Shown in pieces: positions 3,400 through 60,048 of a DNA stretch of 64,000 nt. The position numbers and the translations under genes are program-made. Below the pieces are notes generated by a model. It had not been told where the DNA came from and ran no database searches. It saw only the letters and a list, made by a program, of their open reading frames with translations. Each line of letters begins with the position of its first letter. The first letter of the stretch is position 1. Origin of the DNA: Nannocystis bainbridge (GTDB lineage: Bacteria; Myxococcota_A; Polyangia; Nannocystales; Nannocystaceae); the NCBI RefSeq assembly GCF_028368995.1, contig NZ_JAQNDL010000002.1, positions 609,724 to 673,723 of the forward strand, read 5' to 3'.

Positions 3400-3720
3400 A
3401 CAGAGATGTCTCTCGGGACATGTCGATGAAACGCGTTCCAGGGACAGGTGACCGGGCTCCGAGAAGGACGTGTCTCTCGGGACATGTCGAAGCATCACGG
3501 GTCTGGGACAGGTGACCGGGCCGGAGAACCATGTGTCTCTCGGGACAGGTCGAAGGCGCGCGCTCCGGGGCCGGGCGGCGCCGAGAGCGGCATGTCCTCG
3601 GGGACATGTCGATGGAGCGCGGTCCGGGGACAGGTGGCCGTCCGGAGCGGCGGGATGGCTCCCGGGACATGTCAAACGCGACATGCCCCGAGGGACAGGT
3701 CTAGCCGCGCTGACGCAGGG
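3400..3720. repeat. Tandem array of REP-like GGGACATGTC / GGGACAGGTG hairpin repeats with 63-66 bp higher-order unit (3 copies)
   Basis: Repeated blocks gtctctcgggacatgtcga[a/t]g ... gggacaggtgaccgggc[c/t]..gagaa ... gtg seen three times, plus further single copies up to 3710. Confidence 0.75.
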
Positions 3721-4621
3721 CACCGCGCAGCTTGACGAGGGTGTCGTCGAGGCGCGAGGCGGGCACGCTGACGCGCGTCGGCATGCCGCCGCCGAGGCCG
3801 AGCAGAGTGACGAAATCGAGGCCGCTCTCGAAGCCGGCGGCGATGTTGAGGGTCTGGCCGTCGATGACCACGGCGATGGTGGCGCGCTGCTGGCCGAGCA
3901 GCAGCAGCTCGGTCTTGTCGAACGGGCGCGGGTTCGCGGGCACGCGCACGAGCGCGACGCCGTCCTCGACGACGTAGGCGCGGGCGAGCGCGGCGGCCTC
4001 GGCGGCCATGGCGTCGAAGTCGGCGGCGGCGGCGGCGATCGCCTCCTGCTCGGCGCCGCGCGGGCGACCGGCGACCAGCCAGCGCACGATCTTGATCAGG
4101 AGGACGGTGTCCTCGTAGTGGGCGCGCAGGGCCTTGTCGACGAGGGCGCCGATCGGGCCGACTTCGCCGGTGCGGGTGTCGACGGCGCGGGCGTCGGCGT
4201 CGGCGCCGGGGTAGGGCTCGACGCCGCCGAGCAGCCACTTGGCGGCGGAGTAGAGGCCGTCGAGGTCGAAGTGGGCGACGATGGTGTCGACCGGACCTGT
4301 CTCCTGGACCATCTGCGGCGTGATGATCTCGGGGCAGGCGCCGTGCTCGGCCTTGGTGTGGAGCACGAAGCGAGCGTCACCGCGGAACTGCGCGTGGCGC
4401 TCGTGATCGTGGTGATCGACCCACCGGGCCAGGCGCGGGCCGAGGCCGTGGAGGAACTTGCCGGTGATCTTCTCGAAGCCGCTGCCGATGCCCTCGGCCG
4501 CAAAGGCGACGTCGAGCACGACGACGCGGCCGCGCAGGCTGGCCGGCTTCGGCAGCCGCCGCGGGCTGGCGAACACCAGGTCGATCGCGGCGGCGTGGGC
4601 GAGGTCGGGCGTGGCCTTCAA
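3701..4621 (-). CDS. Hypothetical protein (contains VDHHDHERH motif; possible DHH-like phosphoesterase, uncertain)
   Basis: 306-aa ORF with balanced composition. 4-nt overlap with the downstream TPR gene suggests an operon. Confidence 0.4.
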   Translation of the reverse strand: MKATPDLAHAAAIDLVFASPRRLPKPASLRGRVVVLDVAFAAEGIGSGFEKITGKFLHGLGPRLARWVDHHDHERHAQFRGDARFVLHTKAEHGACPEIITPQMVQETGPVDTIVAHFDLDGLYSAAKWLLGGVEPYPGADADARAVDTRTGEVGPIGALVDKALRAHYEDTVLLIKIVRWLVAGRPRGAEQEAIAAAAADFDAMAAEAAALARAYVVEDGVALVRVPANPRPFDKTELLLLGQQRATIAVVIDGQTLNIAAGFESGLDFVTLLGLGGGMPTRVSVPASRLDDTLVKLRGALRQRG

Positions 4622-4929
4622 CCTTCCAGCCCGGCGCGAGCGGACTCGAGCTCGCCGAGCGCGTGCGAGTCGCCGGCCTGGCGGGCGATCTCGACGCCGG
4701 CGTCGAGGACCGCCCGCGCGCCCGCGGGATCGCCGGCCTCGAGGAACGTGTTGCCGGCCATCAGGTAGGTGGGCACGTATCCGGGGACGCGCGCGATGAG
4801 CTCCTGGAACTCGGCGATCGCCTCGGCGAGCTGCCCGCGACGCTTGAGCTCCATGGCCAGGCCGTAGCGCGGGAACGCCTCACCTGGCTTCTGGGCCACG
4901 AACTGTCGGAGCATCTCGAGGCGATCCAC
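4618..4929 (-). CDS. TPR-repeat protein
   Basis: 103 aa with tetratricopeptide-like helices (..AEAIAEFQELIARVPGYVPTYLMAGNTFLEAGDPAGA..). Confidence 0.5.
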   Translation of the reverse strand: MDRLEMLRQFVAQKPGEAFPRYGLAMELKRRGQLAEAIAEFQELIARVPGYVPTYLMAGNTFLEAGDPAGARAVLDAGVEIARQAGDSHALGELESARAGLEG

Positions 4930-4936
4930 GCGGACC

Positions 4937-5495
4937 TCAGGAGGCGGCCTGCTGACGCATGCGCGGCTTGTAGGTCTGCTTGTGCTTCTCGATGTACTCG
5001 CCGGCGGCCGCGTCCTCGACGCCGAGGGCCTTGAGGACCTCGGGGGTCTGGTCGAACACCGGCGTGTCCTGCAGGTGGCCGATCAGCAGCAGGTAGCTGG
5101 CGACGTGGGCCGGCGGGTACTTCTTGAGCAGCTCGGCGACGCCCTCGCGCAGCTTCTCGGGCGGGTTGGTGACGCAGAAATCCTCGTCGGTCTCGCCCAT
5201 GGTGTGCTTGACGCCGAGGAAATCGAGGTAGTCGACCAGCATCTGGCGGTGGTGACGCATCAGCCACTCGAGCAGGAGCGCGAGCGCGAGGTTGTCGTTG
5301 CCGCCCGTGAGCTCGGCGTCGAAGCGGCGGCGCCACGCGCGGCGGCGGGCGGCCTGGGTGTACGCGGTCGGGGGGACGTTGACGCTGCAGCCGCCGGCCT
5401 TGAGCACTTCGCGGACTTCCTTGCCGGAGAGCTCGTCGTAGTACGCGTCGATGTGGCCTTGGCCCAGGTGTTGACAGATCTCGATCGGCTTCACA
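4937..5495 (-). CDS. Hypothetical protein (real gene is the C-terminal ~186 aa of six-frame ORF 4937..6016; GTG start preceded by AGAGGGAAG RBS)
   Basis: N-terminal 170 aa of the long ORF are Arg/Gln/Pro low-complexity (antisense artefact). Coherent sequence begins VKPIEICQHLGQGHIDAYYDEL. Confidence 0.45.
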
Positions 5496-5587: not shown

Positions 5588-8494
<2,907 letters not shown>

Positions 8495-8625
8495 GCGGCG
8501 GGATGTCTTCGAGGGCATGTCCCGATGGACATGTCTTGGAGAGAATGTCCTCGGGGACATGTCGATGTGAGCATGTCATTCGGGACATGTTCTTGAGGGC
8601 GTGATACGCAGCACGGCCGTGGTTT
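8495..8625. repeat. REP-like CATGTCC/GGACATG repeat cluster
   Basis: gggatgtcttcgagggcatgtcccgatggacatgtcttggagagaatgtcctcggggacatgtcgatgtgagcatgtcattcgggacatgttc. Confidence 0.65.
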
Positions 8626-8646
8626 GCGTGGTGAGGGCCGCCGGGC

Positions 8647-9504
8647 ATGCCTGAAGACAGGGTGGCGATGCGAGTGAGGGATTGTCCCAGGCGGCGCGGA
8701 CGCGGAGCGGTGGTGGCCCTGGCGCTGCTGGGTTGCCCGGCGGGCGAGGTCGCGGAGCTCGAGGGGGAGGAGCCGGCCTGCGCGCGGCCGGGCGGGCGCG
8801 GGTTCGCATTCTCGGGGGCGCCCGAGACGTTCGTGGTGCCCGAGTGCGTGACGAGGCTGACGGTCGAGCTGTGGGGCGCGCAGGGCGGGCCGAGCCGCTG
8901 CGGGACCGACGAGGGGTCTGCTCTGCCGGACCTGCAGATGGACGGCGGACGCGGCGGCTGGCTGCGCGCCGAGGTGCCGGTCCGCCCGGGCGAGGTGGTG
9001 CTGGTGCGCGTGGGCGGGCGCGGCGGCCTCGACGGCGCGCCGGGCTGGAACGGCGGCGGGCGCGGGGGCCGGTGGGCCGGCGGGGGCGGCGGTGGATCGG
9101 ACTTCCGGATCGGCGGGGCGAGCTTGATCGATCGCGCGCTGGTGGCCGGCGGCGGAGGCGGCGGTTCGTGCGGCTTTCCGGACCACGGGGCGGGCGGCGC
9201 CGGCGGCGGGCTGGTGGGCGAGGACGGGACTGTCGGCGAGGCGCCCTGGATCGCGGGCGGTGGCGGCCGACAGCTCGCGGGCGGCGAGGCAGGTTCAGCG
9301 CCGGGGCAGGCGGGGGTGTTCGGGCTCGGCGGCGGGGCAGCCCGCTACCACGTGGCCGGCGGCGGGGGCGGCTGGTACGGGGGTGGCGGGGCGTACGGGG
9401 CGGGCGGCGGCGGCGGTTCGTCGCACGCGAGCGGGGAGGCGAGCGCGGTGGAGAGCGAGGCGGGGGCGCGCGGCGGAGACGGGGCGGCGCAGATCTACTG
9501 GTGA
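8647..9504 (+). CDS. Glycine-rich secreted protein/lipoprotein (Gly_rich-like family); start possibly ATG at 8671
   Basis: Signal peptide with LLGC lipobox, an ordered N-terminal region (FVVPECVTRLTVELWGAQGG), then GGGGG-rich repeats. Composition differs from antisense artefacts (Tyr/Trp/Phe present). Confidence 0.45.
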   Translation: MPEDRVAMRVRDCPRRRGRGAVVALALLGCPAGEVAELEGEEPACARPGGRGFAFSGAPETFVVPECVTRLTVELWGAQGGPSRCGTDEGSALPDLQMDGGRGGWLRAEVPVRPGEVVLVRVGGRGGLDGAPGWNGGGRGGRWAGGGGGGSDFRIGGASLIDRALVAGGGGGGSCGFPDHGAGGAGGGLVGEDGTVGEAPWIAGGGGRQLAGGEAGSAPGQAGVFGLGGGAARYHVAGGGGGWYGGGGAYGAGGGGGSSHASGEASAVESEAGARGGDGAAQIYW

Positions 9505-9524
9505 GACCGAAGGGAAGACGGGCG

Positions 9525-9725
9525 TCGAGGCGTGGGGGCGATGGAGATGTCCGAGAGGACATGTCGAGATCGGCGAGCGCATCGGGTCATCGCGGTGGAT
9601 GATGGTGTCTTTGGGGACATGTCCATGGGGACATGTTTCGAGCGGGTGGGTCGGGGCGCGTCGCCGAGGATGTGTTTCGGACATGTCTCGAAGGACATGA
9701 CAAAAGCTCGCGGGTGACGGGGGAC
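9525..9725. repeat. REP-like CATGTCC/GGACATG repeat cluster
   Basis: gagatgtccgagaggacatgtcgag ... ggggacatgtccatggggacatgtttcgag ... gtttcggacatgtctcgaaggacatgac. Confidence 0.65.
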
Positions 9726-12156: not shown

Positions 12157-12254
12157 CGGAATCATCTGGCTAAAAGGACAGCTAGCGATCGGGCTCACGC
12201 GGCGAGCGGACGCGCGGGCCAATTGATCGCGGGTCCAAAGTCACCGACCCTTCG

Positions 12255-13991
12255 ATGTCGTCCGACGCACCGCTCATTCACCAGCTCCTGGAGCAGCTCG
12301 AGCTCGAGGGGATCACGCACGTCTTCGGGGTGCCGGGCGGGCCGCTCAGCGCGCTGTTCGAGGCGCTCAAGGCCCGCGGACGCATGCGCTTCGTGCTGGC
12401 GCGGCACGAGGCGGGCGCGGCGTTCATGGCCAACGCGTACGCGCGGGTCCGCGGCGAGCCGGCGGTCTGCTGCGTGACCTCGGGGCCGGGGGCGACCAAT
12501 GCGCTGACGGGGGTGGCCTCGGCGCACGCGGACTCGCTGCCGGTCCTCTACCTGACGGGGCAAGTGGCGACGGGGATGTTCGGGCTGGGGGCGATCCAGG
12601 AGAGCACGTGGCACGGGGTCGACGTGGTCGAGATCCTGCGGCCGGTGACGAAGCTTTCGACGATGGTGGTGACGGCGCAGATGGGGATGCGGCTGCTGCG
12701 GCACGCGCTGCGCACGGCGACGACGGGCCGCCCTGGGCCGGTCCACCTCAACATCCCGGCCGACCTGGCGCGGGTGAAGGTGCCGTACGAGGTGCGCGAG
12801 CCGGGCAGCTACCGCCCGCCGTGCGTGTCGGTGGCGCGGGCCGAGGACGTCGAGCACGCGGCGCGGCTGCTGGCAGGCGCGCGCAGGCCGACGCTGTTCG
12901 CCGGCCACGGGGTCGCGCTGGCGAGAGCCGAGCCGGCGCTGCGGCGGCTGGCAGAGCGGCTGCAGGCGCCGGTGGTGACGTCGCCGAAGGGCAAGTCGGT
13001 GTTCCCCGAGGATCACCCGCTGTCGCTCGGCGTGTTCGGGATGGGCGGCCACACGCGAGCGGACCGCTGGCTCGAGGACGACGACGTGATCCTGGTGATC
13101 GGCTCGAGCCTCGGCGAGTTCGCGTCGAGCGCGTGGAGTCAGCGGCTGCGCGCGCCGGTGGCGTTCGTGCAGGTCGACGTCGATCCGCTGCAGATCGGCA
13201 AGAACTACCCGGTGACGCTCGGCCTGGTCGGTGACGCGCGCGCGACCGTGGAGGCGATCACGGCGGCGCTGCCGGGGGGTCCGTCGCGGCCGGCGTCGGA
13301 GGCGGTGGCGAAGCTGAAGCGCGAGGTGCCGCGGTGGGAGCAGCCGGAGCAGCGCAGCGCGGAGGCGTCGCCGCTCTCGCCGCCGCGGGTGATCACCGAG
13401 CTGCGCGCGGCGCTGCCCGATGACGGGCTGCTGTTCGTCGACACCGGCAATTCGAGCCTGTGGGCCGGCCATCACTTCGAGGCGCGGCGGCCGGGCACGT
13501 ACTTCATCGACATGGGATTGGCGGCGATGGGCAGCGCGGTGGCAGGGGCGATCGGCGGGGCGCTGGCGGCCCCGGGGCAGCGGGTGGTGGTGCTGACCGG
13601 CGACGCCGCGTTCGCGATGCACGGCTTCGAGGTCCACACCGCGGTCGAGCTCGGGCTGCCGGTGACGTGGGTGGTGCTCGACAACGCGGGTCACGGGATG
13701 ATCCAGCAGGGCGAGCAGCTGGCGTTCGGCGGCGACGCGGGCTTCTACGGGTTCCGTCACCGGATCGACGCGGCGATGGTGGCGCGTGGGTTCGGGGCGG
13801 TCGGGGTCGAGGTCGAGGACGTGAAATCACTGCGGTCGGCGCTGCGCGAGGCGCTGGCGGGATCGCGGCCGACGGTGATCAACGTGCGCGTCGACCCGAC
13901 GGTGATGGCGCCGACGCTGGCCCGCCGCGCCAGCGCGGTGGCAGAGTTCTTCGGCACGGCGCGCGCGCTCGGCCCGGCAGGTGCGGCGTGA
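12255..13991 (+). CDS. Thiamine-diphosphate-dependent enzyme, acetolactate synthase large-subunit family (possible acyloin synthase)
   Basis: N-terminal Pyr domain (GITHVFGVPGGPLSALFEAL ... AFMANAYARVRGEPAVCCVTSGPGATN), central domain, C-terminal ThDP-binding motif (VVVLTGDAAFAMHGFEVHTAVELGLPVTWVVLDNAGHGMI). Confidence 0.8.
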   Translation: MSSDAPLIHQLLEQLELEGITHVFGVPGGPLSALFEALKARGRMRFVLARHEAGAAFMANAYARVRGEPAVCCVTSGPGATNALTGVASAHADSLPVLYLTGQVATGMFGLGAIQESTWHGVDVVEILRPVTKLSTMVVTAQMGMRLLRHALRTATTGRPGPVHLNIPADLARVKVPYEVREPGSYRPPCVSVARAEDVEHAARLLAGARRPTLFAGHGVALARAEPALRRLAERLQAPVVTSPKGKSVFPEDHPLSLGVFGMGGHTRADRWLEDDDVILVIGSSLGEFASSAWSQRLRAPVAFVQVDVDPLQIGKNYPVTLGLVGDARATVEAITAALPGGPSRPASEAVAKLKREVPRWEQPEQRSAEASPLSPPRVITELRAALPDDGLLFVDTGNSSLWAGHHFEARRPGTYFIDMGLAAMGSAVAGAIGGALAAPGQRVVVLTGDAAFAMHGFEVHTAVELGLPVTWVVLDNAGHGMIQQGEQLAFGGDAGFYGFRHRIDAAMVARGFGAVGVEVEDVKSLRSALREALAGSRPTVINVRVDPTVMAPTLARRASAVAEFFGTARALGPAGAA

Positions 13992-14944
13992 TCGGCGAGG
14001 TCGGGATCCTCGGCTTCGGCCACGCGCTGCCGGACTGCATCCGTCACAACGACGATCCGCTGTTCGCCGCGCTGCCGCCGGCGGGGCCGTTCACCGGGTT
14101 CCGCGAGCGCCGGGTGCTGGCCGCGGGCGAGCGCGTCGAGACGCTCGGGGTGCGCGCGGCCCGGGCCGCGCTGGCGGACGCGGGCGTGGCGGCGGGGGCG
14201 ATCGATCGCCTGTACGGCGCGGTGTCGCCGTCGGAGCACCTGCTGCCGAGCGGGCTGTTCGCGCTGCACGCCGAGCTCGGGCTGCGCAGCGACGCGACGG
14301 TGGTGCCGATCGGCGGCGAGTTCGTCAACTTCGTGGTCGCGCTGACGAGCGCGTGTGAGGCGGTGGCGGCCGGCCGCTGCGAGCGGGCGCTGGTGGTGGT
14401 GGCGGCCGGCTGGAGCCGCGTGGTCGACTACGGCGACGCGGGCGCGTTCGGGGTCGGCGACGGGGCCGGGGCGGTGGTGGTCGGCCGCGGCGGATCGCTG
14501 CGCTTCGTCGACGAGATCGGCGAGACGCACGGGGCGCTGCACGCGGCGATGACGGTGCAATTGCGGGCGCCGCGGCACGCCGAGCCGGGCGCAGGGCCGC
14601 GGCCGACGTTCGTGTTCGAGGCGGCGGCCCGCCGCGTGTACGCCGAGCTTTCGACGGCCGCGCCGGCGCGGCTGTGGGGCGCCTTGCTGGCGCGTCACGG
14701 GCTCGTGCCGGCCGAGGTCGCGCTCGTGACCCATCAGCCGAATCAGCCGGCGCTGGCGGCCTGGCAGCAGCAGCTCGGGCCGGGCGAGCTGCCGAGCGTG
14801 GTCGAGACGCTCGGCAACTGCACGCTGGCGACGTCGGCGATCGTGCTGTCGCTGCACGCCCGCACGCTGCGCTGCCGCCACGTGGTGGTGCTGGGGCTGG
14901 GGATCGGCCAGAACTTCTCGGCGCTGCTGTTGCGGCGAGAGTGA
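13988..14944 (+). CDS. 3-oxoacyl-ACP synthase III (KAS III / FabH-like) family protein; GTG start overlapping upstream stop
   Basis: FabH-like fold signatures (active-site Cys in ALTSACEAVAAG, His/Asn region ..VTHQPNQP.., ..TLGNCTLATSAIVL..). The first ~175 aa of ORF 13460..14944 are Arg/Gly low-complexity (not coding). Confidence 0.75.
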   Translation: MIGEVGILGFGHALPDCIRHNDDPLFAALPPAGPFTGFRERRVLAAGERVETLGVRAARAALADAGVAAGAIDRLYGAVSPSEHLLPSGLFALHAELGLRSDATVVPIGGEFVNFVVALTSACEAVAAGRCERALVVVAAGWSRVVDYGDAGAFGVGDGAGAVVVGRGGSLRFVDEIGETHGALHAAMTVQLRAPRHAEPGAGPRPTFVFEAAARRVYAELSTAAPARLWGALLARHGLVPAEVALVTHQPNQPALAAWQQQLGPGELPSVVETLGNCTLATSAIVLSLHARTLRCRHVVVLGLGIGQNFSALLLRRE

Positions 14945-14984: not shown

Positions 14985-15115
14985 GGGGAGTCCGGAGCTC
15001 GCCGTAAGAGCGGGGCATGTCCTCGTGGGCATGTCCTCGCGGGCATGCCTTGAAGGACATGTCTTCATAGACATGCCGAAACGGGCATGTCCCCGGGGAC
15101 ATGCTCAGCGGCGCA
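14985..15115. repeat. REP-like repeat cluster (GCATGTCC-TCGY-GGGCATG iterated about 6x with a ~14-bp period)
   Basis: ggggcatgtcctcgtgggcatgtcctcgcgggcatgccttgaaggacatgtcttcatagacatgccgaaacgggcatgtccccggggacatgctc. Confidence 0.7.
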
Positions 15116-16730: not shown

Positions 16731-17027
16731 CTGTGATCGCAATCGCAAGCGGCGCGGGCGTCGGCATTCACGGGTCTGCACCTCGGAGGTTCCGCACGGG
16801 CCTTCGCCTTGACCGCCCACCGGACCGCGTGTATCCCCAAATCGATGCTCCGGCGCGCCACCACCGCGACTACCACGACCACCCTTTCGGGTGGGGTCGG
16901 TCGCGTGCGCGTGCGCTGAGAGCCTTCTCGTCACGTCCTGCGAAGCCCCGCCCGAACCGGCGGGGCTTTGGCGCGCCTGGTGGCGTCGCTCCGTCCGGTC
17001 GGCCCTTTCGACCCGGAGAACGCCGTC

Positions 17028-18248
17028 ATGAGCCACGAACACAGCCCCCATTCCGTCCTCGACGCCCACGATCACCGCGCCCTCGGTCCGCGCCTCGGCC
17101 TGTTTCATCTGCAGGAAGAGGCGCCGGCGATGGTGTTCTGGCACCCCCGCGGGCTGGTCCTCGCCCGCGCGCTCGAAGACGCGGCCCGCCGCCGCGCCCG
17201 CGCCGATGGCTATCAAGAGGTGCGCACGCCGCAATTGCTGCGACAGCCGATCTGGGAGAAGAGCGGCCACTGGCAGCATTTCCGCCAGGGAATGTTCGCA
17301 GTCGCGGACGAGGGCTGCGGGGCGGCGCTGAAGCCGGTGAGCTGCCCGGGCCACATCCAGATCGCGCAGCGCCAGGCGCTCTCGTACCGCGACCTGCCGC
17401 TTCGCCTGTGCGAGTTCGGGCTGTGCCACCGCGACGAGCCGAGCGGGACGCTGCACGGGCTGTTCCGGCTGCGGCAGTTCACGCAGGACGACGGGCACGT
17501 GTTCTGCGCGGAGGACCAGATCGCGGCCGAGATCGTGCGCTTCTGCCAGGGCGCCCGCCAGTTCTATGCGGGCTTCGGATTCGACGAATTCGCGGTGGGG
17601 CTCTCGACGCGCCCGCCGGAGCGGGTCGGCGACGATGCGCTGTGGGACCGCGCAGAGGCGCAGCTGGCGGCGGCAGCCCGCGAGGCGGGGCTGGAGTTCA
17701 ATGTGCAGCCAGGCGAGGGCGCGTTCTACGGGCCGAAGCTCGAGTTCTCGCTGCGCGACCGCCTGGGCCGATCGTGGCAATGCGGGACGATCCAGCTCGA
17801 CTTCAACCTGCCAGAGCGGTTCGGGCTGCACTACATCGACGAGGCAGGCCAGCGCCGCCGGCCGGCGATGCTGCACCGGGCGATCTACGGCAGCCTCGAG
17901 CGGTTCCTGGCGATCGTGCTCGAGCAACACGCAGGGTCGCTGCCAGCCTGGCTGGCGCCGGTGCAGGTGGTGGTGGCGCCGGTCGGTCCGGAGCAACAGG
18001 CGGCGGCGGCGGCGGCGGTGGCGGAGATGGCGGCGGCGGGGATCCGCGCGGAGCTGGACGACCGCCGCGAGACGCTGGCCCGCCGGGTGGCAGAAGCCCA
18101 CGCGCACGGGGTGCCGATGATCGCGGTGATCGGGGCGCGCGAGGCGAGCAGCGAATCGCTGACGCTGAGGGTCGGGGCGGCGCAGCAGGTGCTGCCGCGC
18201 ATGCAAGCGGTGGCGCAGATCGCGAGGGACTGCGCGCCGCCGGTGTGA
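17028..18248 (+). CDS. Threonyl-tRNA synthetase paralog: catalytic core plus anticodon-binding domain only (lacks N-terminal TGS/editing domains)
   Basis: Class II aaRS/ThrRS motifs: QLLRQPIWEKSGHWQHFRQGMF, zinc-site CPGHIQI, motif 2 ..RLCEFGLCHRDEPSGTLHGLFRLRQFTQDDGHVF.., motif 3 ..GAFYGPKLEF... C-terminal anticodon-binding-like alpha/beta domain. Start ATG 17028 with GGAGAA RBS. Confidence 0.75.
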   Translation: MSHEHSPHSVLDAHDHRALGPRLGLFHLQEEAPAMVFWHPRGLVLARALEDAARRRARADGYQEVRTPQLLRQPIWEKSGHWQHFRQGMFAVADEGCGAALKPVSCPGHIQIAQRQALSYRDLPLRLCEFGLCHRDEPSGTLHGLFRLRQFTQDDGHVFCAEDQIAAEIVRFCQGARQFYAGFGFDEFAVGLSTRPPERVGDDALWDRAEAQLAAAAREAGLEFNVQPGEGAFYGPKLEFSLRDRLGRSWQCGTIQLDFNLPERFGLHYIDEAGQRRRPAMLHRAIYGSLERFLAIVLEQHAGSLPAWLAPVQVVVAPVGPEQQAAAAAAVAEMAAAGIRAELDDRRETLARRVAEAHAHGVPMIAVIGAREASSESLTLRVGAAQQVLPRMQAVAQIARDCAPPV

Positions 18249-18385
18249 TGGCGGATGCCGCCGCCCGCGCAGAGCGGGCGGCGGCTGCTCTGCAAGAGCC
18301 TGCTCGTCGGTAGGCCGAAATCCTGCGAGGGAGCGCCCAAGAGCGAGTTCAAGGAAGGCTGCTCGTCGCTACCGAAACGTCCTTC

Positions 18386-19726
18386 TTGAAGGTGCGAGAC
18401 GGGCGGCGGTGCCTGGCCGCCAGGATGCCGACGTGGTACGGAAGAGCGGTGCAGATCCGCGACATCGAGCTCACGAACTTCCGCGGCTTCGAGACGCTCA
18501 AGTGTGAGCTCAACCCCGAGTGCACACTGTTCGTGGGGATCAACGGATCTGGCAAGACCAGTGTACTTGATGCGATCGCGGCGCTGCTATCGATGTGGAT
18601 GCGTGCTGTGGCCGGTCGATTGGATGGGGGGAGGCTCGAGCCCGACGACCGGCGGCTAGTCCGGCGGATCATCAAGGGGGTCCCGAGCCTTGAGGTTGCG
18701 GGGCCCGTGGTCGTCCATGGAACCATCTCTGGAAGAGAGGGTGAATCGCACCTTGAACGCGTGTCGTTGGACGGCACAGATTTTGTAAACAGTTCCCTCC
18801 TGTCGGAAGGGTATCGCACTGTCGAATCGGTCAGTGCAGGAGCGCAGGAAGAACTGCCGCTCTTCGCTTACTACTGCACCGGTAGACTGTGGCAAACGAG
18901 CGATGTGCAGGGAAACCTGAGGTTGCAAAGCGTGTTCGATGGCTACCGTGATTGTCTGCGCGCGGCTGTTAACCATCAGCTTCTTCAGAGCTGGATGTCG
19001 TGGCGGGAATCCGTCCGCCTGCAGGAGATCGGTCTCGCCGTGGAAAGCGGCCAGGAAATCAGGTCGGTACGAGAACCGCTGCTCGAGGTAGTTGCAAACG
19101 CAGTTACCGATTGTGTGGAAGGGGCAAAGCGGTTCTACTATTCCGTAAACCACGAGGAGCTTCGGGTCGACTTCAAGGACGGGCGAACGCTGCCCTTCCG
19201 CATGTTGTCGGACGGGTACCGCAACTTGCTGGCGCTCGTCGGCGACATCGCCTGGCGCGCCGCGCGGCTCAATCCTCATCACGGGGTAGATGCGGCCAAG
19301 GAGACCGCAGGCGTGGTGCTGATCGACGAGCTCGATCTTCACCTGCACCCGAGCTGGCAGCGGAGCGTGCTGCCGAACTTGCGGCGGGTCTTCCCGAAGA
19401 TCCAGTTCATCGCCACGACCCACTCGCCGCAAGTGCTGTCCACGGCCGAGCCGGCGTGGATCCGCGTGCTCCATCCGGACGGCAGCGTGGGCACCGTCGA
19501 GCATACGCACGGACGTGACTCCAACAGCCTGCTCGAGGACGTGTTTGGCGTCCCCGAGCGGCCCGTCGAGACGCGCGACGACATCCGGCGGCTGTTCGAC
19601 CTCATCGATCGCGGCGCGTTCGACGAGGCCGAAGCGTTGCGGGAGAAGTTGCAGGAGGACCTCGGTCCGGACGACCCTGACATCGTGCGGGCTCGAACCG
19701 CGATCGATCTCGAGAGGAATCTATGA
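18386..19726 (+). CDS. AAA/ABC-type ATPase, PtuA-like (Septu-type defence ATPase); true start possibly ATG 18425
   Basis: RecF/SMC-like Walker A (FVGINGSGKTSVLDAI), Walker B/D-loop (VVLIDELDLHLHP), H-loop (IATTHSP). GC content about 55-62%, well below flanks. Confidence 0.65.
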   Translation: MKVRDGRRCLAARMPTWYGRAVQIRDIELTNFRGFETLKCELNPECTLFVGINGSGKTSVLDAIAALLSMWMRAVAGRLDGGRLEPDDRRLVRRIIKGVPSLEVAGPVVVHGTISGREGESHLERVSLDGTDFVNSSLLSEGYRTVESVSAGAQEELPLFAYYCTGRLWQTSDVQGNLRLQSVFDGYRDCLRAAVNHQLLQSWMSWRESVRLQEIGLAVESGQEIRSVREPLLEVVANAVTDCVEGAKRFYYSVNHEELRVDFKDGRTLPFRMLSDGYRNLLALVGDIAWRAARLNPHHGVDAAKETAGVVLIDELDLHLHPSWQRSVLPNLRRVFPKIQFIATTHSPQVLSTAEPAWIRVLHPDGSVGTVEHTHGRDSNSLLEDVFGVPERPVETRDDIRRLFDLIDRGAFDEAEALREKLQEDLGPDDPDIVRARTAIDLERNL

Positions 19727-20349
19727 TCTCGGCCCCAAAGGGGAGCGCGCCGTCCTGTCTCACCACGCTGGCCGCCACGCCGGGGGCCGACTGGGACAGC
19801 GTGTACGGCGACCAGAAGCAATCGATGCGGGATGCGCTCGTGCGTGACCAGGGGTCGCTCTGCGCGTACTGTCAGCGGCGAGTGAAGGCGACCGAGGCCG
19901 ACATGCGCATCGATCACTGGCACCCGCGCGAGCGCGGCGGAGGTGTGTTCCAGTGGAACAACCTCGTCGGCTCGTGCGCCGATCGTGTGACCTGCGACGC
20001 GGCGAAGCAGGAGACCCGGCTGTTCCTTCATCCTGCGCGCGGGCTGGGGCCCGATCCGCGGCAGTTCCTGCGCTACACCGGCTCGGGCGAGGTGGTCGCC
20101 GACGACGAGCGGGCGCGTGCCGACACGCGTACGCTCGGTCTCAACGACGATCGCCTGGTCCGGGCCCGGCGGGCGGTGCTGGACGCCCTCCGCGGATGGA
20201 TCGCGCGGCGCGAGCGGTCAACGGCAGAGCTCCAGCGACAGATCGTGCTCCTGGAGTCGCCTGCAGGCGAGGCCCCGGAGTATGCGGCGACTCGTGCCTA
20301 CTATTTCCGCAAATGGTCGAGGGCGCGGGGAGCAGCCGTGGAGCGGTGA
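19723..20349 (+). CDS. HNH endonuclease, PtuB-like partner of the ATPase
   Basis: CAYCQRR ... DHWHPRERGGG ... WNNLVGSC = Cys-rich HNH/His-Me finger. ATGA overlap with upstream ATPase. Confidence 0.6.
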   Translation: MISAPKGSAPSCLTTLAATPGADWDSVYGDQKQSMRDALVRDQGSLCAYCQRRVKATEADMRIDHWHPRERGGGVFQWNNLVGSCADRVTCDAAKQETRLFLHPARGLGPDPRQFLRYTGSGEVVADDERARADTRTLGLNDDRLVRARRAVLDALRGWIARRERSTAELQRQIVLLESPAGEAPEYAATRAYYFRKWSRARGAAVER

Positions 20350-20674
20350 CAGCATTCGCTCGTAGCAAGGCGAGCAGACGCGGCTGCGCTCCACCGCGGG
20401 GAGCCGTGAGACCGCCGACGATCTGCGTTACGCCGATGCGCCCGCAATTGCTGCGAGACAATTTCGCTGCGCTCGTCTCCATGCCAGCACGTCGTCCCGA
20501 CTTGGCGAGCGTGTGGCGAGCTGGAGGATCTGCAGTGGATCCCCGACGCCTGCGACCGTGGTCGTGCCGAGGAGATCGCGTCTTGCGTCTTGGTCAGGCG
20601 CGGCGCTCGTTCCGCCTGCCACTCTTGTAAACTGGCCTGGGGGGCCGTAGCCGCGGGTCTGGCTCGGGGCGTTG

Positions 20675-20699
20675 GGCGAAAACGCGCGCTGTTTTCGCC
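20675..20699. promoter_or_regulatory. Inverted repeat GGCGAAAAC-N7-GTTTTCGCC upstream of the O-methyltransferase gene (operator or terminator candidate)
   Basis: Perfect 9-bp inverted arms about 55 bp upstream of ATG 20754. Confidence 0.3.
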
Positions 20700-20753
20700 G
20701 GACTGTGCCACTCGTCGGCGGGGCCGGGGTGAGCGAAAGTCTGGGCCGCCGGC

Positions 20754-21824
20754 ATGACCGTCAACGTCCCCAAGCCCATCACCGCGCTCGAGGCGCTGGA
20801 GCGCGCGCAGTGGATCGCGTTCGCTCCGTTCGTGTTTCAGGCCGCCCGCGTGCTGCGCGACCGCGGGATCCTCTTCGCCATCGAACGCAGTCGGGACGGG
20901 CTCACGCTCGAGGAGGTCGCGGCGGCGGCGGAGCTGCCGATCTACGGGACGCGGGTGGTGCTCGAGGCGGGGCTGGGGATCGGGCTCGTGACCGAGGTCG
21001 AGGGCCGCTATCGCATCACCAAGACCGGCGTGTACGTGCAGCACGATGCGATGACGCGCGCCAACTTCGACTTCACGCGCGACGTGAACTACCACGGGAT
21101 CGCGGGGCTCGACGCGGCGGTGGCGTCGGGCAAGCCGGAGGGGCTGAAGGTGTTCGGCGAGTGGCCGACGGTGTACGCCGGGCTGTCGCAGCTGCCGGAG
21201 TCGGTGCGCAAGTCGTGGTTCCAGTTCGACCACTACTACTCCGACGGGGCGTTCGGCGCGGCGCTGCCGCTGGTGTTCGCAGGCAAGCCGAAGCGGCTGC
21301 TCGACATCGGCGGCAACACGGGCAAGTGGGCGACCGCGTGCATGAAGCACGACCCCGACGTCGAGGTGACGCTGATGGACCTGCCGGGGCAGCTGCGCAA
21401 CGCGGAGCAGAACCTGCGCGCGGCGGGGCTGCTGGCGCGGGCGCGCTTCCACGAGGCGGACCTGCTCGACGACGCCACGGCGATCCCGGGCGAGTTCGAC
21501 GCGATCTGGATGAGCCAGTTCCTCGACTGCTTCTCGGAGGCCGAGATCGTGTCGATCCTGCGCCGCTGCGTGGCGGCGGCCGGGCCCAATTGCAAGATCT
21601 ACATCCTCGAGGCGTTCTGGGACCGTCAGCGCTTCGAGGCCGCCAGCTTCTGCCTGCAGATGACTTCGCTGTACTTCACGGCGATCGCCAACGGCACCAG
21701 CCAGATGTACCGCTCGACGACGTTCCTCGCGTGCGTGCACGCGGCCGGCCTCGAGGTCGAGCGCGAGTACGACGAGCTCGGGGTCAGTCACACGCTGCTG
21801 GTGTGCCGGCCACGCGCGATGTGA
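20754..21824 (+). CDS. Class I SAM-dependent O-methyltransferase (family 2, with N-terminal dimerisation domain)
   Basis: SAM motif LLDIGGNTGKW, MDLP, and a C-terminal region typical of plant/bacterial small-molecule O-MTs. Confidence 0.8.
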   Translation: MTVNVPKPITALEALERAQWIAFAPFVFQAARVLRDRGILFAIERSRDGLTLEEVAAAAELPIYGTRVVLEAGLGIGLVTEVEGRYRITKTGVYVQHDAMTRANFDFTRDVNYHGIAGLDAAVASGKPEGLKVFGEWPTVYAGLSQLPESVRKSWFQFDHYYSDGAFGAALPLVFAGKPKRLLDIGGNTGKWATACMKHDPDVEVTLMDLPGQLRNAEQNLRAAGLLARARFHEADLLDDATAIPGEFDAIWMSQFLDCFSEAEIVSILRRCVAAAGPNCKIYILEAFWDRQRFEAASFCLQMTSLYFTAIANGTSQMYRSTTFLACVHAAGLEVEREYDELGVSHTLLVCRPRAM

Positions 21825-24666: not shown

Positions 24667-24780
24667 CGAAAATGTCTCATTGGACATGTTTGTTTGAACA
24701 TGTCCTTATGCGTCTGTCGTCGAATCGTCGAGGACATGTTCATAAGAACATGTCCGATTGAACATGCGTCAGGGCGGGCG
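24660..24780. repeat. REP-like repeat cluster (AT-richer variant)
   Basis: tcattggacatgtttgtttgaacatgtccttatg ... gaggacatgttcataagaacatgtccgattgaacatgcg. Confidence 0.6.
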
Positions 24781-26249: not shown

Positions 26250-26350
26250 AGAATGACCTCAAGGACATGTCCTGAAGGGAATGTCCGTGGTCGCTCGCTC
26301 GCTCGCTCGCGGTCATGAACGCTCGGGACATGTTCGAGAGGACATGTCCC
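26250..26350. repeat. REP-like repeat cluster
   Basis: aaggacatgtcctgaagggaatgtccgtgg ... gggacatgttcgagaggacatgtcccgtg. Confidence 0.6.
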
Positions 26351-28894: not shown

Positions 28895-28945
28895 GCACAG
28901 CCATCAATGGCTTTTTGGACATGTCGACGAGGACATGTCCCGGAG
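28895..28945. repeat. REP-like repeat pair
   Basis: tttttggacatgtcgacgaggacatgtcccggaggtc. Confidence 0.55.
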
Positions 28946-45334: not shown

Positions 45335-45660
45335 ATGGCGGGAGGGACATGGGCTTTGGGACATGTCGGTCGGGCCAGAGGCGGGATGTCAGGGGGGACA
45401 TGTTGGACCTGGTGAAGCGGGCGCGTCATGCTCCGGCACGAGGCATGTGGCGCGAGAGACATGTCCCGATCCACATGCTCGATTCGACATGTCCTGATCG
45501 ACATTCCTGAATGGACATGTTGGGCCTGGTGGAGCGTGCGCGGCCATGCGCTGTTACGAGCCATGCAGCGCGAGAGATGTCCCGATTGACATGCTCTATT
45601 CGACATGTCTGGATCGACATGTCTCGATAGACATGTCTCCGCGGACATGTCCCGCGGCGC
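45335..45660. repeat. Large REP-like repeat array (about 20 CATG-core units)
   Basis: gggacatgggctttgggacatgtcggtcgggc ... gggggacatgttggacctgg ... gagacatgtcccgatccacatgctcgattcgacatgtcctgatcgacattcctgaatggacatgttggg ... gacatgctctattcgacatgtctggatcgacatgtctcgatagacatgtctccgcggacatgtcccgcgg. Confidence 0.75.
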
Positions 45661-56963: not shown

Positions 56964-57177
56964 TCCTCACCCACCAGACCGCCCGGGCAGATCTGGCGAC
57001 CTGCCCGGGCGGTCGTCTGTCTTGCGTTCGACCTGTCTGAAAAGACATCTTGCGCGCGGCCGCGGCGGCGCGGTCCCCGGGCCGCGCGTGGCCCGGCGCA
57101 CGGCGGAGTGGGGCATGCGCGCCCGTGCGCGATAGCGTCCTCGATCGAGGGCCATAGGTCGTGTACCGTGGTCGGCG

Positions 57178-60048
57178 GTGGGAGCCCGCTCGCCCGACGA
57201 CGTGTGCTCCGGGCCCTCCGGCCCGGACCTGCTCGCGACCACCGACGCGAAGTCGCCGGCGCTGGACGTCACCGCCCGCGCCGGCGCCAGCCCGATCGAG
57301 AAGACGGTCCTTGCAGCACCTGTCCGCAAGGACAGCACGCCGCACGTGAGCGCCGGCGTCAGCCTGCGCGCCGCGATCGCGCTCGACGACTCGCTGCTCC
57401 GGCAGTCGCGGCGGATCGGTCGCTACGCGATCCTGAGCGAGCTCGGCGAGGGCGGCATGGGCGTGGTCCTGTCGGGCTACGACGAGGTGCTCGAGCGCCG
57501 CGTCGCCATCAAGGTGCTGCGCTCGCACAACCGCCAGGACGGGCGCCTGCAGGCCCGCCTGCTGCGCGAGGCGCAGGCGCTGGCCCGCCTGTCGCACCCC
57601 AACGTGGTCCAGGTCTACGAGGCCGGGGCGCTCGGCGACGAGCTGTTCATCGCCATGGAGTTCGTCCGCGGCGTCACGCTCTCGGCGTGGCTGGCCGACC
57701 GCGCGCGCACGCAGCAGGAGATCCTCGCGGTGTTCGCCGAGGCCGGGCGCGGGCTGGCGGCGGCCCACCGCGTCGGCCTCACGCACCGCGACTTCAAGCC
57801 CGGCAACGTGCTCGTCGACCTCGAAGGCCGCGTGCGCGTGGTCGATTTCGGCCTGGCCGCGCTCGCCGAGCAGGCCGAGCGGCCCACCAGCGAGGAGCTG
57901 GCCGGCGTCGGCGTCGAGCGCACCGGCGTGCTCGCCGGCACGCCGGCGTACATGGCCCCCGAGCAGTGGCTCGGCGAGCAGGTCGACGCCCGCACCGATC
58001 AGTTCAGCTTCTGCGTCGCGCTGTGGGAGGCGCTGGTCGGCGCCCGGCCGTTCACCGGCGACAGCGTCGACGAGCTGCGCGACCAGGTCCTGGTCGCCGA
58101 TCTGCCCGAGCGCGTGCACGTCGGCCCGCGGATCGGCAAGCGGCTCTACCGGGTGCTCGCGCGGGGCCTCGCGCGGGTCCCCGACGGCCGCTATCCCAGC
58201 ATGGACGCGCTGCTGGCCGACCTCGCCGGCCCGCAGGTGCGCGCCCGCCATGCGGTGCTCGGGCTCGGGCTCGGCGCCGTGATCGGCCTGGCCGCGGCCG
58301 CGTGGAGCTTCCAGGACGAGGGCCGCTGCCTCGGCGCCGAGGCCCGGCTCGTCGGCGTGTGGGACCCGGCCCGCCGCGACGCCGCCGCCGACGCCTTCGA
58401 GGCCGCCGGGGTCGGGTTCGCCGACGAGGCGTGGACGCAGGTCGCCGGCCGCCTCGACGCCCGCGCCGACGCGATCGTGGCCATGCACCGCCACGCCTGC
58501 GAGGCCCACGCCCGCGGCGAGCAGTCCGAGCACCTGCTCGACCTGCGCATGGCCTGTCTTTCGCGCCATGTCCATGAGGTCAGGGCCGTCACCGACCTGC
58601 TGGTGGCCGCCGACGCCGGCGTGGTCGAGCGGGCCGTCGACGCCGTGGCCGCGCTGCCGCCGATCGAGCGCTGCGCCGACGTCGCGCTGCTGACCGCCGA
58701 GGTCGCGCCGCCGGCCGATCCGGCCACCGCGCTGGCCGTCGACAACGTCCGCCGCGCGCTCGCCAACGTCGCCGCGCTCGAGCACACCGGCCGCTACGAG
58801 GCCGGCCGGCTCGGCGCCGAGCAGGCCGTCGCCGCCGCCGAGGCCACCGCCTACGCCCCGGCCGTCGCCGAGGCCCAGCTCGCGCGCGGCCGCTTGCTCG
58901 CGCTCGTGCAGCGCGACGGCGAGGCCGAGACCAGCCTGCGCGCCGCCTTCACCACCGCCACCGCCAGCCACCAGGACGCGGTCGCCCGCGACGCCGCCGC
59001 CGCGCTCGTCGAGACCCTCAACACCCTCGGCCGCCTCGACCACGCCCAGGTCTGGCTCGAGATCGCCGCCGCCGCCCAGGCCCGCGCGCCCGACGACGGC
59101 GCCGCCGCTTTCCTCGATCTCGCGCGCAGCAAGCTGCTGTGGTCGCTCGGGCGCTACGCCGAGTCCGAGGCCGCCATCGAGCGCAGCGTCGCCGCCTACG
59201 ACGCCCTCCACGGCCCCGACAACCCCGCCACCGCGCGCGCGCGCCAGTGGTTCGGCACCGCGCTGTGGGCCCGCCAGGAGTTCGCTCGCTCCAAGGCTGT
59301 CCTTCCGGACAGCCGCGCCCGCCTCGAGCGCCTCTACGGCCCCGAGCACCCCGAGGTCGCCGCCGCCCTGCGCTTCGAGGGCAACCTCTACTTCGCGCTC
59401 ACCGACTTCGACGCCGCCCTCGCGACCTGGCGCCGCGGCCTCGACATCATCCTCCGCACCCGCGGCGAGGACGACCCGCTGGTGGTCGTGCTGCAGGGCA
59501 ACATCGCCGCCGCGCTGGCCCGCGCGCGCCGCCCCGTCGACGCCGTCGCCGCCTTCGAGGCCGTCGTGCGCACGCTCGAGCGCCGCCACGGCCCCGACCA
59601 CATCGAGCTGTGCACCCAGCTCGACAACCTCGGCGCGTCCTACCTCGAGGCCGGCCAGCTCGGCCCCTCGCGCCTGGCCATCGACCGCTCGCTGGCGATC
59701 CGCCGCCGCGTCCTCGGCGAGGGCCACGCCGAGGTCGCGCGCTCGCTGCTCGGCCTCGGCGAGTGGGGCCTGCACGCCCGCGACTACGCCACCGCCATCC
59801 CCGCGTTCGAGCGCGCCCTGGCGATCCGCGCCGGCACCGACGTGCACGCCCTCCTGCGCGGCCGCGCCGAGTACGGCCTGGCCCGCGCGCTGTGGCTGTC
59901 GGACCGCGACCGCGGCCGCGCCCGCGCCCTCATCGATCAGGCCGTCGCCACCTTCACCTCGCTCGGCCAGGCCGGCTCGCTCGACCTGAACGAGGCGACG
60001 GCCTGGCGCACCGAGAACGTGCCGCCCGCGGTCGCGCCGAAGCGCTGA
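57178..60048 (+). CDS. Serine/threonine protein kinase with C-terminal TPR repeats (start uncertain, possibly near 57300)
   Basis: Hanks kinase subdomains (GEGGMGVV, AIKVL, HRDFKPGN, DFG, APEQ) followed by many TPR-like helices. Confidence 0.75.
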   Translation: MGARSPDDVCSGPSGPDLLATTDAKSPALDVTARAGASPIEKTVLAAPVRKDSTPHVSAGVSLRAAIALDDSLLRQSRRIGRYAILSELGEGGMGVVLSGYDEVLERRVAIKVLRSHNRQDGRLQARLLREAQALARLSHPNVVQVYEAGALGDELFIAMEFVRGVTLSAWLADRARTQQEILAVFAEAGRGLAAAHRVGLTHRDFKPGNVLVDLEGRVRVVDFGLAALAEQAERPTSEELAGVGVERTGVLAGTPAYMAPEQWLGEQVDARTDQFSFCVALWEALVGARPFTGDSVDELRDQVLVADLPERVHVGPRIGKRLYRVLARGLARVPDGRYPSMDALLADLAGPQVRARHAVLGLGLGAVIGLAAAAWSFQDEGRCLGAEARLVGVWDPARRDAAADAFEAAGVGFADEAWTQVAGRLDARADAIVAMHRHACEAHARGEQSEHLLDLRMACLSRHVHEVRAVTDLLVAADAGVVERAVDAVAALPPIERCADVALLTAEVAPPADPATALAVDNVRRALANVAALEHTGRYEAGRLGAEQAVAAAEATAYAPAVAEAQLARGRLLALVQRDGEAETSLRAAFTTATASHQDAVARDAAAALVETLNTLGRLDHAQVWLEIAAAAQARAPDDGAAAFLDLARSKLLWSLGRYAESEAAIERSVAAYDALHGPDNPATARARQWFGTALWARQEFARSKAVLPDSRARLERLYGPEHPEVAAALRFEGNLYFALTDFDAALATWRRGLDIILRTRGEDDPLVVVLQGNIAAALARARRPVDAVAAFEAVVRTLERRHGPDHIELCTQLDNLGASYLEAGQLGPSRLAIDRSLAIRRRVLGEGHAEVARSLLGLGEWGLHARDYATAIPAFERALAIRAGTDVHALLRGRAEYGLARALWLSDRDRGRARALIDQAVATFTSLGQAGSLDLNEATAWRTENVPPAVAPKR

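Follow-up and report, generated by a model that had tools for sequence, protein, structure and literature searches.

What is encoded by the GC-poor pair of genes that lies between a threonyl-tRNA synthetase-like (ThrRS-like) gene and an O-methyltransferase gene in Nannocystis bainbridge? A reading made from the sequence alone (hereafter the sequence-only reading) had proposed that this pair, located in a 64-kb stretch of DNA that we analysed as a whole and refer to as the window, forms a two-gene Septu anti-phage system consisting of an ATPase (PtuA) and an HNH nuclease (PtuB). We found this architecture to be borne out by PADLOC profiles, matches to solved structures and intact motifs, and we conclude that ptuA-ptuB is very probably a stand-alone (type I) Septu defence operon. 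The pair has the PtuA family assignment and motifs, the PtuB residues and fold, and the operon order of such a system, with neither a reverse transcriptase (RT) nor a non-coding RNA (ncRNA), whereas it does not show the features of a type I-A retron, of a RecF/Rad50/SbcC housekeeping ATPase or of a defence island. Two open reading frames (ORFs) are indeed present at 18386..19726 and 19723..20349 on the plus strand, as had been described; they are adjacent and co-directional, and the stop codon of ptuA overlaps the start codon of ptuB in a 4-nt ATGA at 19723-19726.

The larger gene product belongs to the PtuA family. The PADLOC PtuA1 profile (PDLC00278) matched it over its full length (2e-117; ORF residues 23-444 to profile positions 2-429 of 436), the Pfam models AAA_15 and AAA_21 scored 81.5 and 77.2 against cut-offs of 32.1 and 27, and the best solved match was PtuA of the stand-alone E. 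coli Septu (PDB 8ee4), which aligned end-to-end (residues 1-423, E 2.8e-59, 36% identity). The sequence-only reading had named searches against PtuA (AAA_15/AAA_21) and PtuB (HNH) profiles as a check of its proposal, and these came out in its favour; the Walker A, Walker B/D-loop and H-loop motifs that it had quoted, together with the HNH motifs of the partner, are all present in the sequence (Table 1). At position 257, within the ABC signature, 34 of the 40 PtuA homologues that we aligned carry a Tyr.

The pair could instead represent a housekeeping DNA-repair ATPase of the SMC/RecF/SbcCD-like kind with its partner nuclease, or another defence pair such as Gabija/OLD, PARIS AriAB or MADS. The N-terminal P-loop region does resemble SMC_N, RecF and Rad50, and weak PDB matches to AriA and to an OLD-family nuclease were found. 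However, the matches to RecF, Rad50 and SbcC were confined to residues 23-68, a P-loop stretch of ~45 residues, and scored far below the respective cut-offs (RecF TIGR00611, 42.4 vs 172; Rad50, 18-28 vs 700-1087; SbcC, 11.3 vs 478.5), such that the assignment to a RecF/SbcC-type family that had been named as the counter-case did not materialise. The match to AriA was partial, at an E-value of 3e-6 compared to 2.8e-59 over the full length for PtuA, and the ATPase is partnered by an HNH protein of the PtuB type instead of a nuclease of the TOPRIM or Mre11 type. As the gene is, moreover, missing from most congeners (see below), it is not a housekeeping gene. Profile scores and presence/absence pattern together refute this explanation, and we give it next to no chance.

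The smaller gene product was assigned to PtuB by both profile and fold. The PADLOC PtuB1 profile (PDLC00322) matched it over its full length (3.8e-37, residues 1-197), and TIGR02646 scored 66.8, above its cut-off of 52.15. Across 20 homologues, residues C47, C50, H65, C85, C91 and D92 were invariant and N80 was retained in at least 90%, and a profile built from these homologues matched all solved PtuBs, including that of Septu (8ee7_C) at 7.9e-14. An AlphaFold2 model of PtuB (predicted local distance difference test, pLDDT, 90.5; predicted template-modelling score, pTM, 0.87) retrieved 11 PtuB chains from the PDB upon a Foldseek search, all with E <= 1.2e-6 and template-modelling (TM) scores of 0.60-0.72, the next-best match after these chains being the HNH domain of Cas9. 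Every solved PtuB was among the structures that the model resembled; the highest query-normalised TM score, 0.72, was obtained for E. coli Septu (8eea_G), and the PtuBs of retrons reached 0.60-0.70. According to the model, PtuB consists of a beta-beta-alpha-Me core followed by a C-terminal helical domain, which in the solved complexes docks on PtuA.

Both gene models deviate from an earlier description. The ATPase had been given as a protein of 446 aa; this ORF is real, but its length had been counted from the first TTG at 18386, and the true product is 425 aa. Sequence comparison places the start of ptuA at the GTG at 18449, since position 2 of the PADLOC PtuA profile pairs with ORF residue 23, which puts protein residue 1 at this GTG, since homologues of 424-427 aa span 100% of the 425-aa query, and since the 425-aa protein is an exact match to RefSeq WP_272087734.1 (Nannocystis bainbridge). 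A Shine-Dalgarno-like (SD-like) GGAAGAG at 18440-18446 precedes the GTG. For ptuB, by contrast, the RefSeq protein (WP_272087735.1) begins at GTG 19801 and is 182 aa long, which cuts off the segment 19723-19800. The 26 N-terminal residues thereby missing include K6, G7, P10 and W24, which are invariant or nearly so across homologues, and an SD-like GAGAGGA at 19712-19718 lies 4 nt upstream of the ATG at 19723; because of this conservation and the SD-like site, the 208-aa protein is the better gene model. RefSeq furthermore names the product 'retron system putative HNH endonuclease', a name derived from TIGR02646 that is misleading here. Hence, public annotation is corrected on two points, the retron product name and a PtuB that is short by 26 conserved N-terminal residues.

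That product name raises the question whether the pair belongs to a type I-A retron as an orphan or degenerate effector module, with PtuAB being controlled by an RT and its msDNA (multicopy single-stranded DNA) nearby or elsewhere. Type I-A retrons are also called type II Septu and make up about 7.6% of Septu systems (PMC12640716); what they add is an RT, an ncRNA and a longer PtuA, whose N-terminal extension and coiled-coil/helical flap bind the RT and msDNA (PMC12819146, PMC12673091). Apart from the name, the retron-type profiles also match our proteins, both those of PADLOC (ATPase_I-A, 6.8e-77; HNH_I-A, 2.2e-33) and those of NCBIfam for retron Ec78 (PtuA, 4e-72; PtuB, 3.3e-27), and the PtuB model resembles retron PtuBs as well. 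These matches, however, stay well below those of the stand-alone profiles and below their own cut-offs (PtuA NF041760, 243.8 vs 500; PtuB, 95.8 vs 150). Retron PtuAs (542-552 aa) align only to the C-terminal half of our PtuA, from residues ~160-235 to ~420, and a protein of 425 aa is too short to accommodate either the N-terminal extension or the flap. The neighbourhood speaks in the same direction: the flanks are conserved core genes at spacers of 200 bp on the ThrRS-like side and 404 bp on the O-methyltransferase side, into which an RT gene does not fit, no RT was found among the Pfam-annotated neighbours of ptuAB, and none lies beside any close PtuAB homologue. An Rfam search of the whole window in gathering mode returned no match for the locus, a search of 18100-20900 in E-value mode gave a single match at chance level, and RNA folding of the 404-bp downstream spacer revealed no excess structure over shuffled sequences (z = +0.54). 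The retron explanation is thus largely refuted, and we regard it as very improbable.

Returning to the stand-alone Septu assignment, the closest known systems are E. coli Septu Ec-B88 and the stand-alone E. coli Septu of solved structure (8EE4/8EE7/8EEA; Li et al. 2024, cited in PMC12819146 and PMC12673091), with which the pair was compared. The two share the ptuA-ptuB order and the lack of an RT, a short PtuA that is free of retron insertions and contains Walker A/B, signature, D-loop and H-loop, and a PtuB with a Cys4 zinc finger, a catalytic His and Asn, and the C-terminal helical domain for which the fold similarity to 8eea_G was found. They differ in the length of PtuA (425 aa here, 465 aa in E. 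coli), in the signature (LSDGYR compared to LSDGLR) and in the degree of divergence of PtuB, for which a single-sequence search missed 8ee7, such that it was found only by profile or fold. The host also differs, being a 73%-GC myxobacterium. Residues K43 and D316 of PtuA and H75 and N91 of PtuB, on which the defence by E. coli Septu Ec-B88 was shown by mutation to depend (PMC13096335), have equivalents in the proteins described here. With Retron-Eco7 (= Ec78) and Retron-Eco4 (= Ec83), the pair shares a homologous PtuA ATPase core and PtuB HNH nuclease, but those systems possess an RT and msr/msd RNA that are absent here, and their PtuAs are 542-552 aa long. Residues C43/C46/C78/C90 and H57 of the Retron-Eco7 PtuB correspond to C47/C50/C85/C91 and H65 of ours, and mutation of C43, C46, H57 or C78 abolishes defence in that retron (PMC12673091).

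Several observations weigh against reading the pair as a functional Septu of the known kind. The Pfam models HNH (20.0 vs 21.4) and Endonuclease_7 (23.3 vs 23.6) both scored just under their gathering thresholds on PtuB, a shortfall for which the PtuB-specific profiles and the fold match make up. PtuA shares no more than 36% identity with its characterised E. coli counterpart, and the Tyr in the signature replaces a Leu in E. coli Septu and a Gln in retron PtuA. In retron Ec78, this position is Gln361 and has been discussed in connection with ATPase activity (PMC12819146); as the residue differs, ATP hydrolysis behaviour cannot be extrapolated from the known systems. The substrate of the nuclease is disputed even in E. 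coli, where DNA nicking was seen in vitro and tRNA-Tyr cleavage in vivo (PMC13096335, PMC12819146, PMC12673091, PMC12640716). Defence against phages is a predicted function of this locus, as it is of any myxobacterial Septu.

With both genes intact and translationally coupled, and with all ATPase motifs and HNH/zinc-finger residues conserved, a mode of action can be sketched by analogy with characterised Septu systems. PtuA would oligomerise (6 PtuA : 2 PtuB in E. coli) and hold PtuB inactive for as long as ATP is bound. Phage infection, sensed via a structural protein of the phage and/or via declining ATP, would release or activate the HNH nuclease, which would nick DNA and/or cleave host tRNA-Tyr in its variable loop, such that phage replication would be stopped at the cost of host growth, in an abortive-infection-like manner. 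The PtuA6:PtuB2 assembly and the ATP-inhibited DNA nicking are, as far as the citations in PMC12819146, PMC12673091 and PMC12640716 go, established only for E. coli Septu, and the cue reported for stand-alone Septu is a tail-fibre protein together with a fall in ATP (PMC13096335, PMC12819146, PMC12673091, PMC12640716). For phage resistance by the pair described here, the signature of purifying selection and a homologue embedded in a BREX operon, both described below, provide indirect support.

How did the pair come to lie between these two genes? The sequence-only reading had noted a low-GC segment. The dip is real and even constitutes the GC minimum of the whole window (a 1.3-kb stretch over ptuA), but it is not even across the pair and falls mostly in ptuA: ptuA has a GC content of 62.2% and a GC content at third codon positions (GC3) of 0.77, with the lowest 400-bp windows at 57.8-59.3%, while ptuB has values of 70.3% and 0.84, compared to 73.3 +/- 2.4% and 0.94 +/- 0.023 (minimum 0.89) for the 25 other genes of the window. 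Homologous ptuAB pairs in other hosts of 72% GC are likewise GC-poor relative to their own flanks, as expected for genes of a shared mobile pool.

We recovered the syntenic region of five further Nannocystis species by a scan with the O-methyltransferase. The gene order of FAD-monooxygenase, ThrRS-like gene, gap, O-methyltransferase, M16 peptidase pair, OmpA-family protein and the next gene was kept in all five, and the flanking proteins were 67-96% identical across them, but ptuAB was absent from the site in four of the five. The gap between the conserved genes instead held unrelated filler in N. punicea (locus L004; 1128 bp, including a ~100-nt tandem array), N. exedens (L005; 444 bp, with CATG-palindrome repeats), Nannocystis sp. 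RBIL2 (L007; 757 bp) and N. radixulma (L008; 289 bp, with CATG-palindrome repeats), and only in N. pusilla (L006) did it contain ptuAB, in the form of a divergent allele. Homology to the genomes with an empty site ends at 18248-18270 and resumes clearly at 20637; an alignment of the sequences upstream of the O-methyltransferase gene refined the right edge, with a degenerate conserved GAGGGAGATCGC core resuming at about 20560-20582. Both the synteny and the composition thus came out as anticipated by the sequence-only reading, with a pair missing from most relatives and a confirmed compositional anomaly. The neighbours that it had named, a ThrRS-like gene upstream and an O-methyltransferase gene downstream, were found as well, and the ~400 bp of non-coding DNA at the 3' side of the pair measured 404 bp.

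Its proposal of horizontal acquisition into a defence or variable region held with one qualification: the gap is variable and the composition foreign, but a defence island was not found. A PADLOC scan of the 28 other proteins of the window yielded generic domain matches only (a SAM methyltransferase, an OmpA/MotB domain, a radical-SAM protein and a Ser/Thr kinase). The kinase, a 970-aa protein encoded at 57136-60045, matches PADLOC PD-T4-6 and kinase models (up to 7.5e-79); as myxobacteria have very large kinase repertoires, the match most likely reflects a generic domain and not a role in defence. No integrase or transposase was found near the cassette, no meaningful direct or inverted repeats flank it, and no tRNA lies nearby, the sole tRNA of the window being a tRNA-Glu at 52473. 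Rather than in a defence island, ptuAB is located at a hotspot of intergenic variation between core genes.

The N. pusilla allele sheds light on the history of this site. It shares 75% amino acid identity with the N. bainbridge allele for PtuA and 80% for PtuB. Between the two alleles, synonymous divergence (dS) was 1.05 for ptuA and 1.35 for ptuB, with ratios of nonsynonymous to synonymous divergence (dN/dS) of 0.18 and 0.09, whereas the four flanking genes showed a dS of 0.15-0.33, a value that strong GC3 bias may depress, and a dN/dS of 0.18-0.38. To judge by these substitution rates, the ptuAB alleles are much older than the divergence of their flanks, which argues less for simple vertical descent than for one hotspot at which alleles were replaced or independently acquired. 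The dN/dS of 0.09-0.18 indicates that ptuAB is functional and under purifying selection.

A different account would be that of a selfish or decaying cassette, that is, a toxin-like pair kept by addiction or hitch-hiking, or one en route to loss, without a current role in defence. Consistent with it, the site was lost or never filled in four of the five congeners, and retron-type PtuAB is toxic unless neutralised (PMC12819146). The assembly of the N. pusilla type strain (Na p29, long-read; L006) also carries two 1-bp frameshifts in ptuA. These frameshifts are, however, probably sequencing errors, as they are absent from an independent short-read contig of 99.8% identity (L042), in which ptuA is intact, and as core-gene indels occur alongside: in L006, single-base indels at 7536-9606 and 4074-5406 break ptuA, ptuB and the core FAD-monooxygenase gene. 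We therefore rejected a pseudogene in N. pusilla and consider assembly errors most likely. In N. bainbridge, both genes are intact with all catalytic residues, and the low dN/dS over a deep allelic divergence points to sustained purifying selection. Overall, we judge a selfish or decaying cassette to be unlikely.

Variation within PtuA itself was concentrated in its central part, which is also the most GC-poor stretch. Among the 40 homologues, column entropy was highest in residues 51-125 (2.3-2.9 bits), compared to 0.8-1.1 in the motifs, and the stretch 18689-19150, which overlaps the DNA of lowest GC, showed 58% amino acid identity to the N. pusilla allele with dS saturated. From this pattern, we infer that the hypervariable, GC-poor centre of PtuA is likely a specificity or sensing surface. 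Combining these elements, we tentatively propose a model to which we would give somewhat less than an even chance: the gap between the ThrRS-like and O-methyltransferase genes would be a fixed exchange hotspot, free of mobility genes, in which whole ptuAB alleles, far older than the species, are swapped by homologous recombination via the conserved flanks, with the hypervariable PtuA centre acting as the phage-sensing surface that drives turnover, and the clade with a Tyr in its signature could handle ATP in another way than E. coli Septu or act on another substrate.

The nearest family of the pair is a clade of Myxococcota PtuABs, with members in Myxococcus fulvus, Pyxidicoccus, Corallococcus, Polyangium, Nannocystis sp. 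and metagenomes, which show 43-66% amino acid identity, a PtuA length of 420-450 aa, the same gene arrangement and the signature Tyr noted above. To our knowledge, this clade has no characterised member. Outside the genus, the most similar allele (66%; L003) occupies another genomic setting, and PtuA with a PtuB of about 210-230 aa recurs as an adjacent, RT-free pair in the homologue loci L001, L002, L003 and L042. A search for close relatives on plasmids or phage contigs turned up only distant homologues (<=37% identity). In L001 (Logan SRR22388222, 1-17317), a 50%-identical PtuAB pair is located inside a BREX operon, flanked by a PLD-domain gene and pglZ, in the order BrxC/PglY-like, PglX methylase, an unannotated gene, PLD-domain gene, PtuA, PtuB, PglZ and BrxL, and thus represents one defence system nested within another. 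In L002, an AAA_15/AAA_21 ATPase is paired with a DUF4276 gene at 12919-14786, ~3 kb from the PtuAB homologue, and may be a second ATPase-nuclease defence pair of the same neighbourhood.

The system is of a well-known type that standard defence-annotation tools would detect and that is already in RefSeq under generic or misleading names. Knowledge of Septu itself is unchanged and the practical value is modest; what is added, besides the annotation corrections, is a hotspot whose alleles are deeply diverged, and a stand-alone Septu that could be assigned with confidence in a myxobacterial genus without any studied defence system. The four empty Nannocystis sites set against two diverged intact alleles are usable for studying the turnover of a defence cassette without mobile-element genes, and the same allele comparison could reveal which part of PtuA sets phage specificity.

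Table 1. Features of the ptuAB locus and repeat clusters in the window
Feature	Position	Strand	Description
ptuA	18449..19726	+	425-aa ABC-type (AAA_15/AAA_21) ATPase, GTG start
Walker A	18536..18559	+	GINGSGKT, residues G30-T37, K36; G30, N32, G35 and K36 invariant in 40 homologues
Hypervariable central part of PtuA	18599..19150	+	Also most GC-poor stretch
ABC signature	19205..19222	+	LSDGYR, residues 253-258; S254 and G256 invariant in 40 homologues
Walker B and D-loop	19313..19348	+	VVLIDELDLHLH, D293/E294; L291-E294 and L297-P301 invariant in 40 homologues
H-loop	19412..19429	+	ATTHSP, H325; T324, H325, S326 and P327 invariant in 40 homologues
ptuB	19723..20349	+	208-aa HNH (beta-beta-alpha-Me) nuclease with C-terminal three-helix domain, ATG start
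PtuB catalytic core	19861..19998	+	Zinc ligands C47, C50, C85, C91; catalytic H65; N80; D92
Variable segment with ptuAB	18271..20550	.	~2.3 kb; blastn and tblastn against L004-L008
GC hairpin	18257..18285	+	Perfect 12-bp inverted repeat (I21), just past the stop codon of the ThrRS-like gene (18248)
Non-coding spacer	20350..20753	.	~200 bp cassette-specific tail, then conserved upstream region of the O-methyltransferase gene
GGACATGTCC clusters	2803-2826, 3416-3674, 8513-8592, 9543-9688, 15013-15092, 24696-24755, 26263-26349, 28917-28940, 34876-35100, 45359-45652		

The edges of the variable segment carry elements of their own. On the left, the edge is marked by the hairpin, which is probably the terminator of the ThrRS-like gene. 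A scan of the locus for sigma-70-like promoters found none, and terminator-like sites occurred at chance level. On the right, positional GC is flat across the spacer, and its cassette-specific tail is not conserved in N. pusilla (~50% identity). Within 20560-20753, a GAGG(G)AGATCGC core and a CTGGGG..CCGTAGCCGCGG block are kept upstream of the O-methyltransferase gene in six Nannocystis genomes, and they are probably a promoter or regulatory element of that gene.

The ThrRS-like gene (16968-18248) encodes a 426-aa protein with a class II aminoacyl-tRNA synthetase core and an anticodon-binding domain but without the N-terminal editing domains, and it is found at the same position in all five congeners with 88-92% amino acid identity. 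The protein may be a paralogue whose role is non-canonical or lies in self-resistance. A functional link of this neighbour to the tRNA-Tyr cleavage of Septu was considered and rejected, as the gene is kept in all five congeners with or without ptuAB. Further upstream lie genes for a thiamine pyrophosphate (TPP)-dependent enzyme and a KASIII-like protein (12186-14941), for which none of the five relatives has a counterpart within 10 kb of the syntenic region; they constitute a second strain-variable segment, upstream of the FAD-monooxygenase gene.

Repeats were encountered at several places. The tandem array in the empty site of N. punicea (L004, 8757-9884) is built of a ~100-nt unit (…GGCTGTCCTTCGGGACATCTGAGGGCGTTGCGCGGAGGGAGGTCCTCACGAGCGCGG…) in at least 4 copies. 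In the window, the palindromic decamer GGACATGTCC, allowing for at most 1 mismatch, forms intergenic clusters with 39 matches compared to 1.7 expected (Table 1), and its spacing of 14/28/28 nt is the same at 8513 and 15013, which suggests a repetitive extragenic palindromic (REP)- or miniature inverted-repeat transposable element (MITE)-like repeat family or a clustered binding site. CATG-palindrome clusters like those of GGACATGTCC occupy the empty ptuAB site in N. exedens and N. radixulma.

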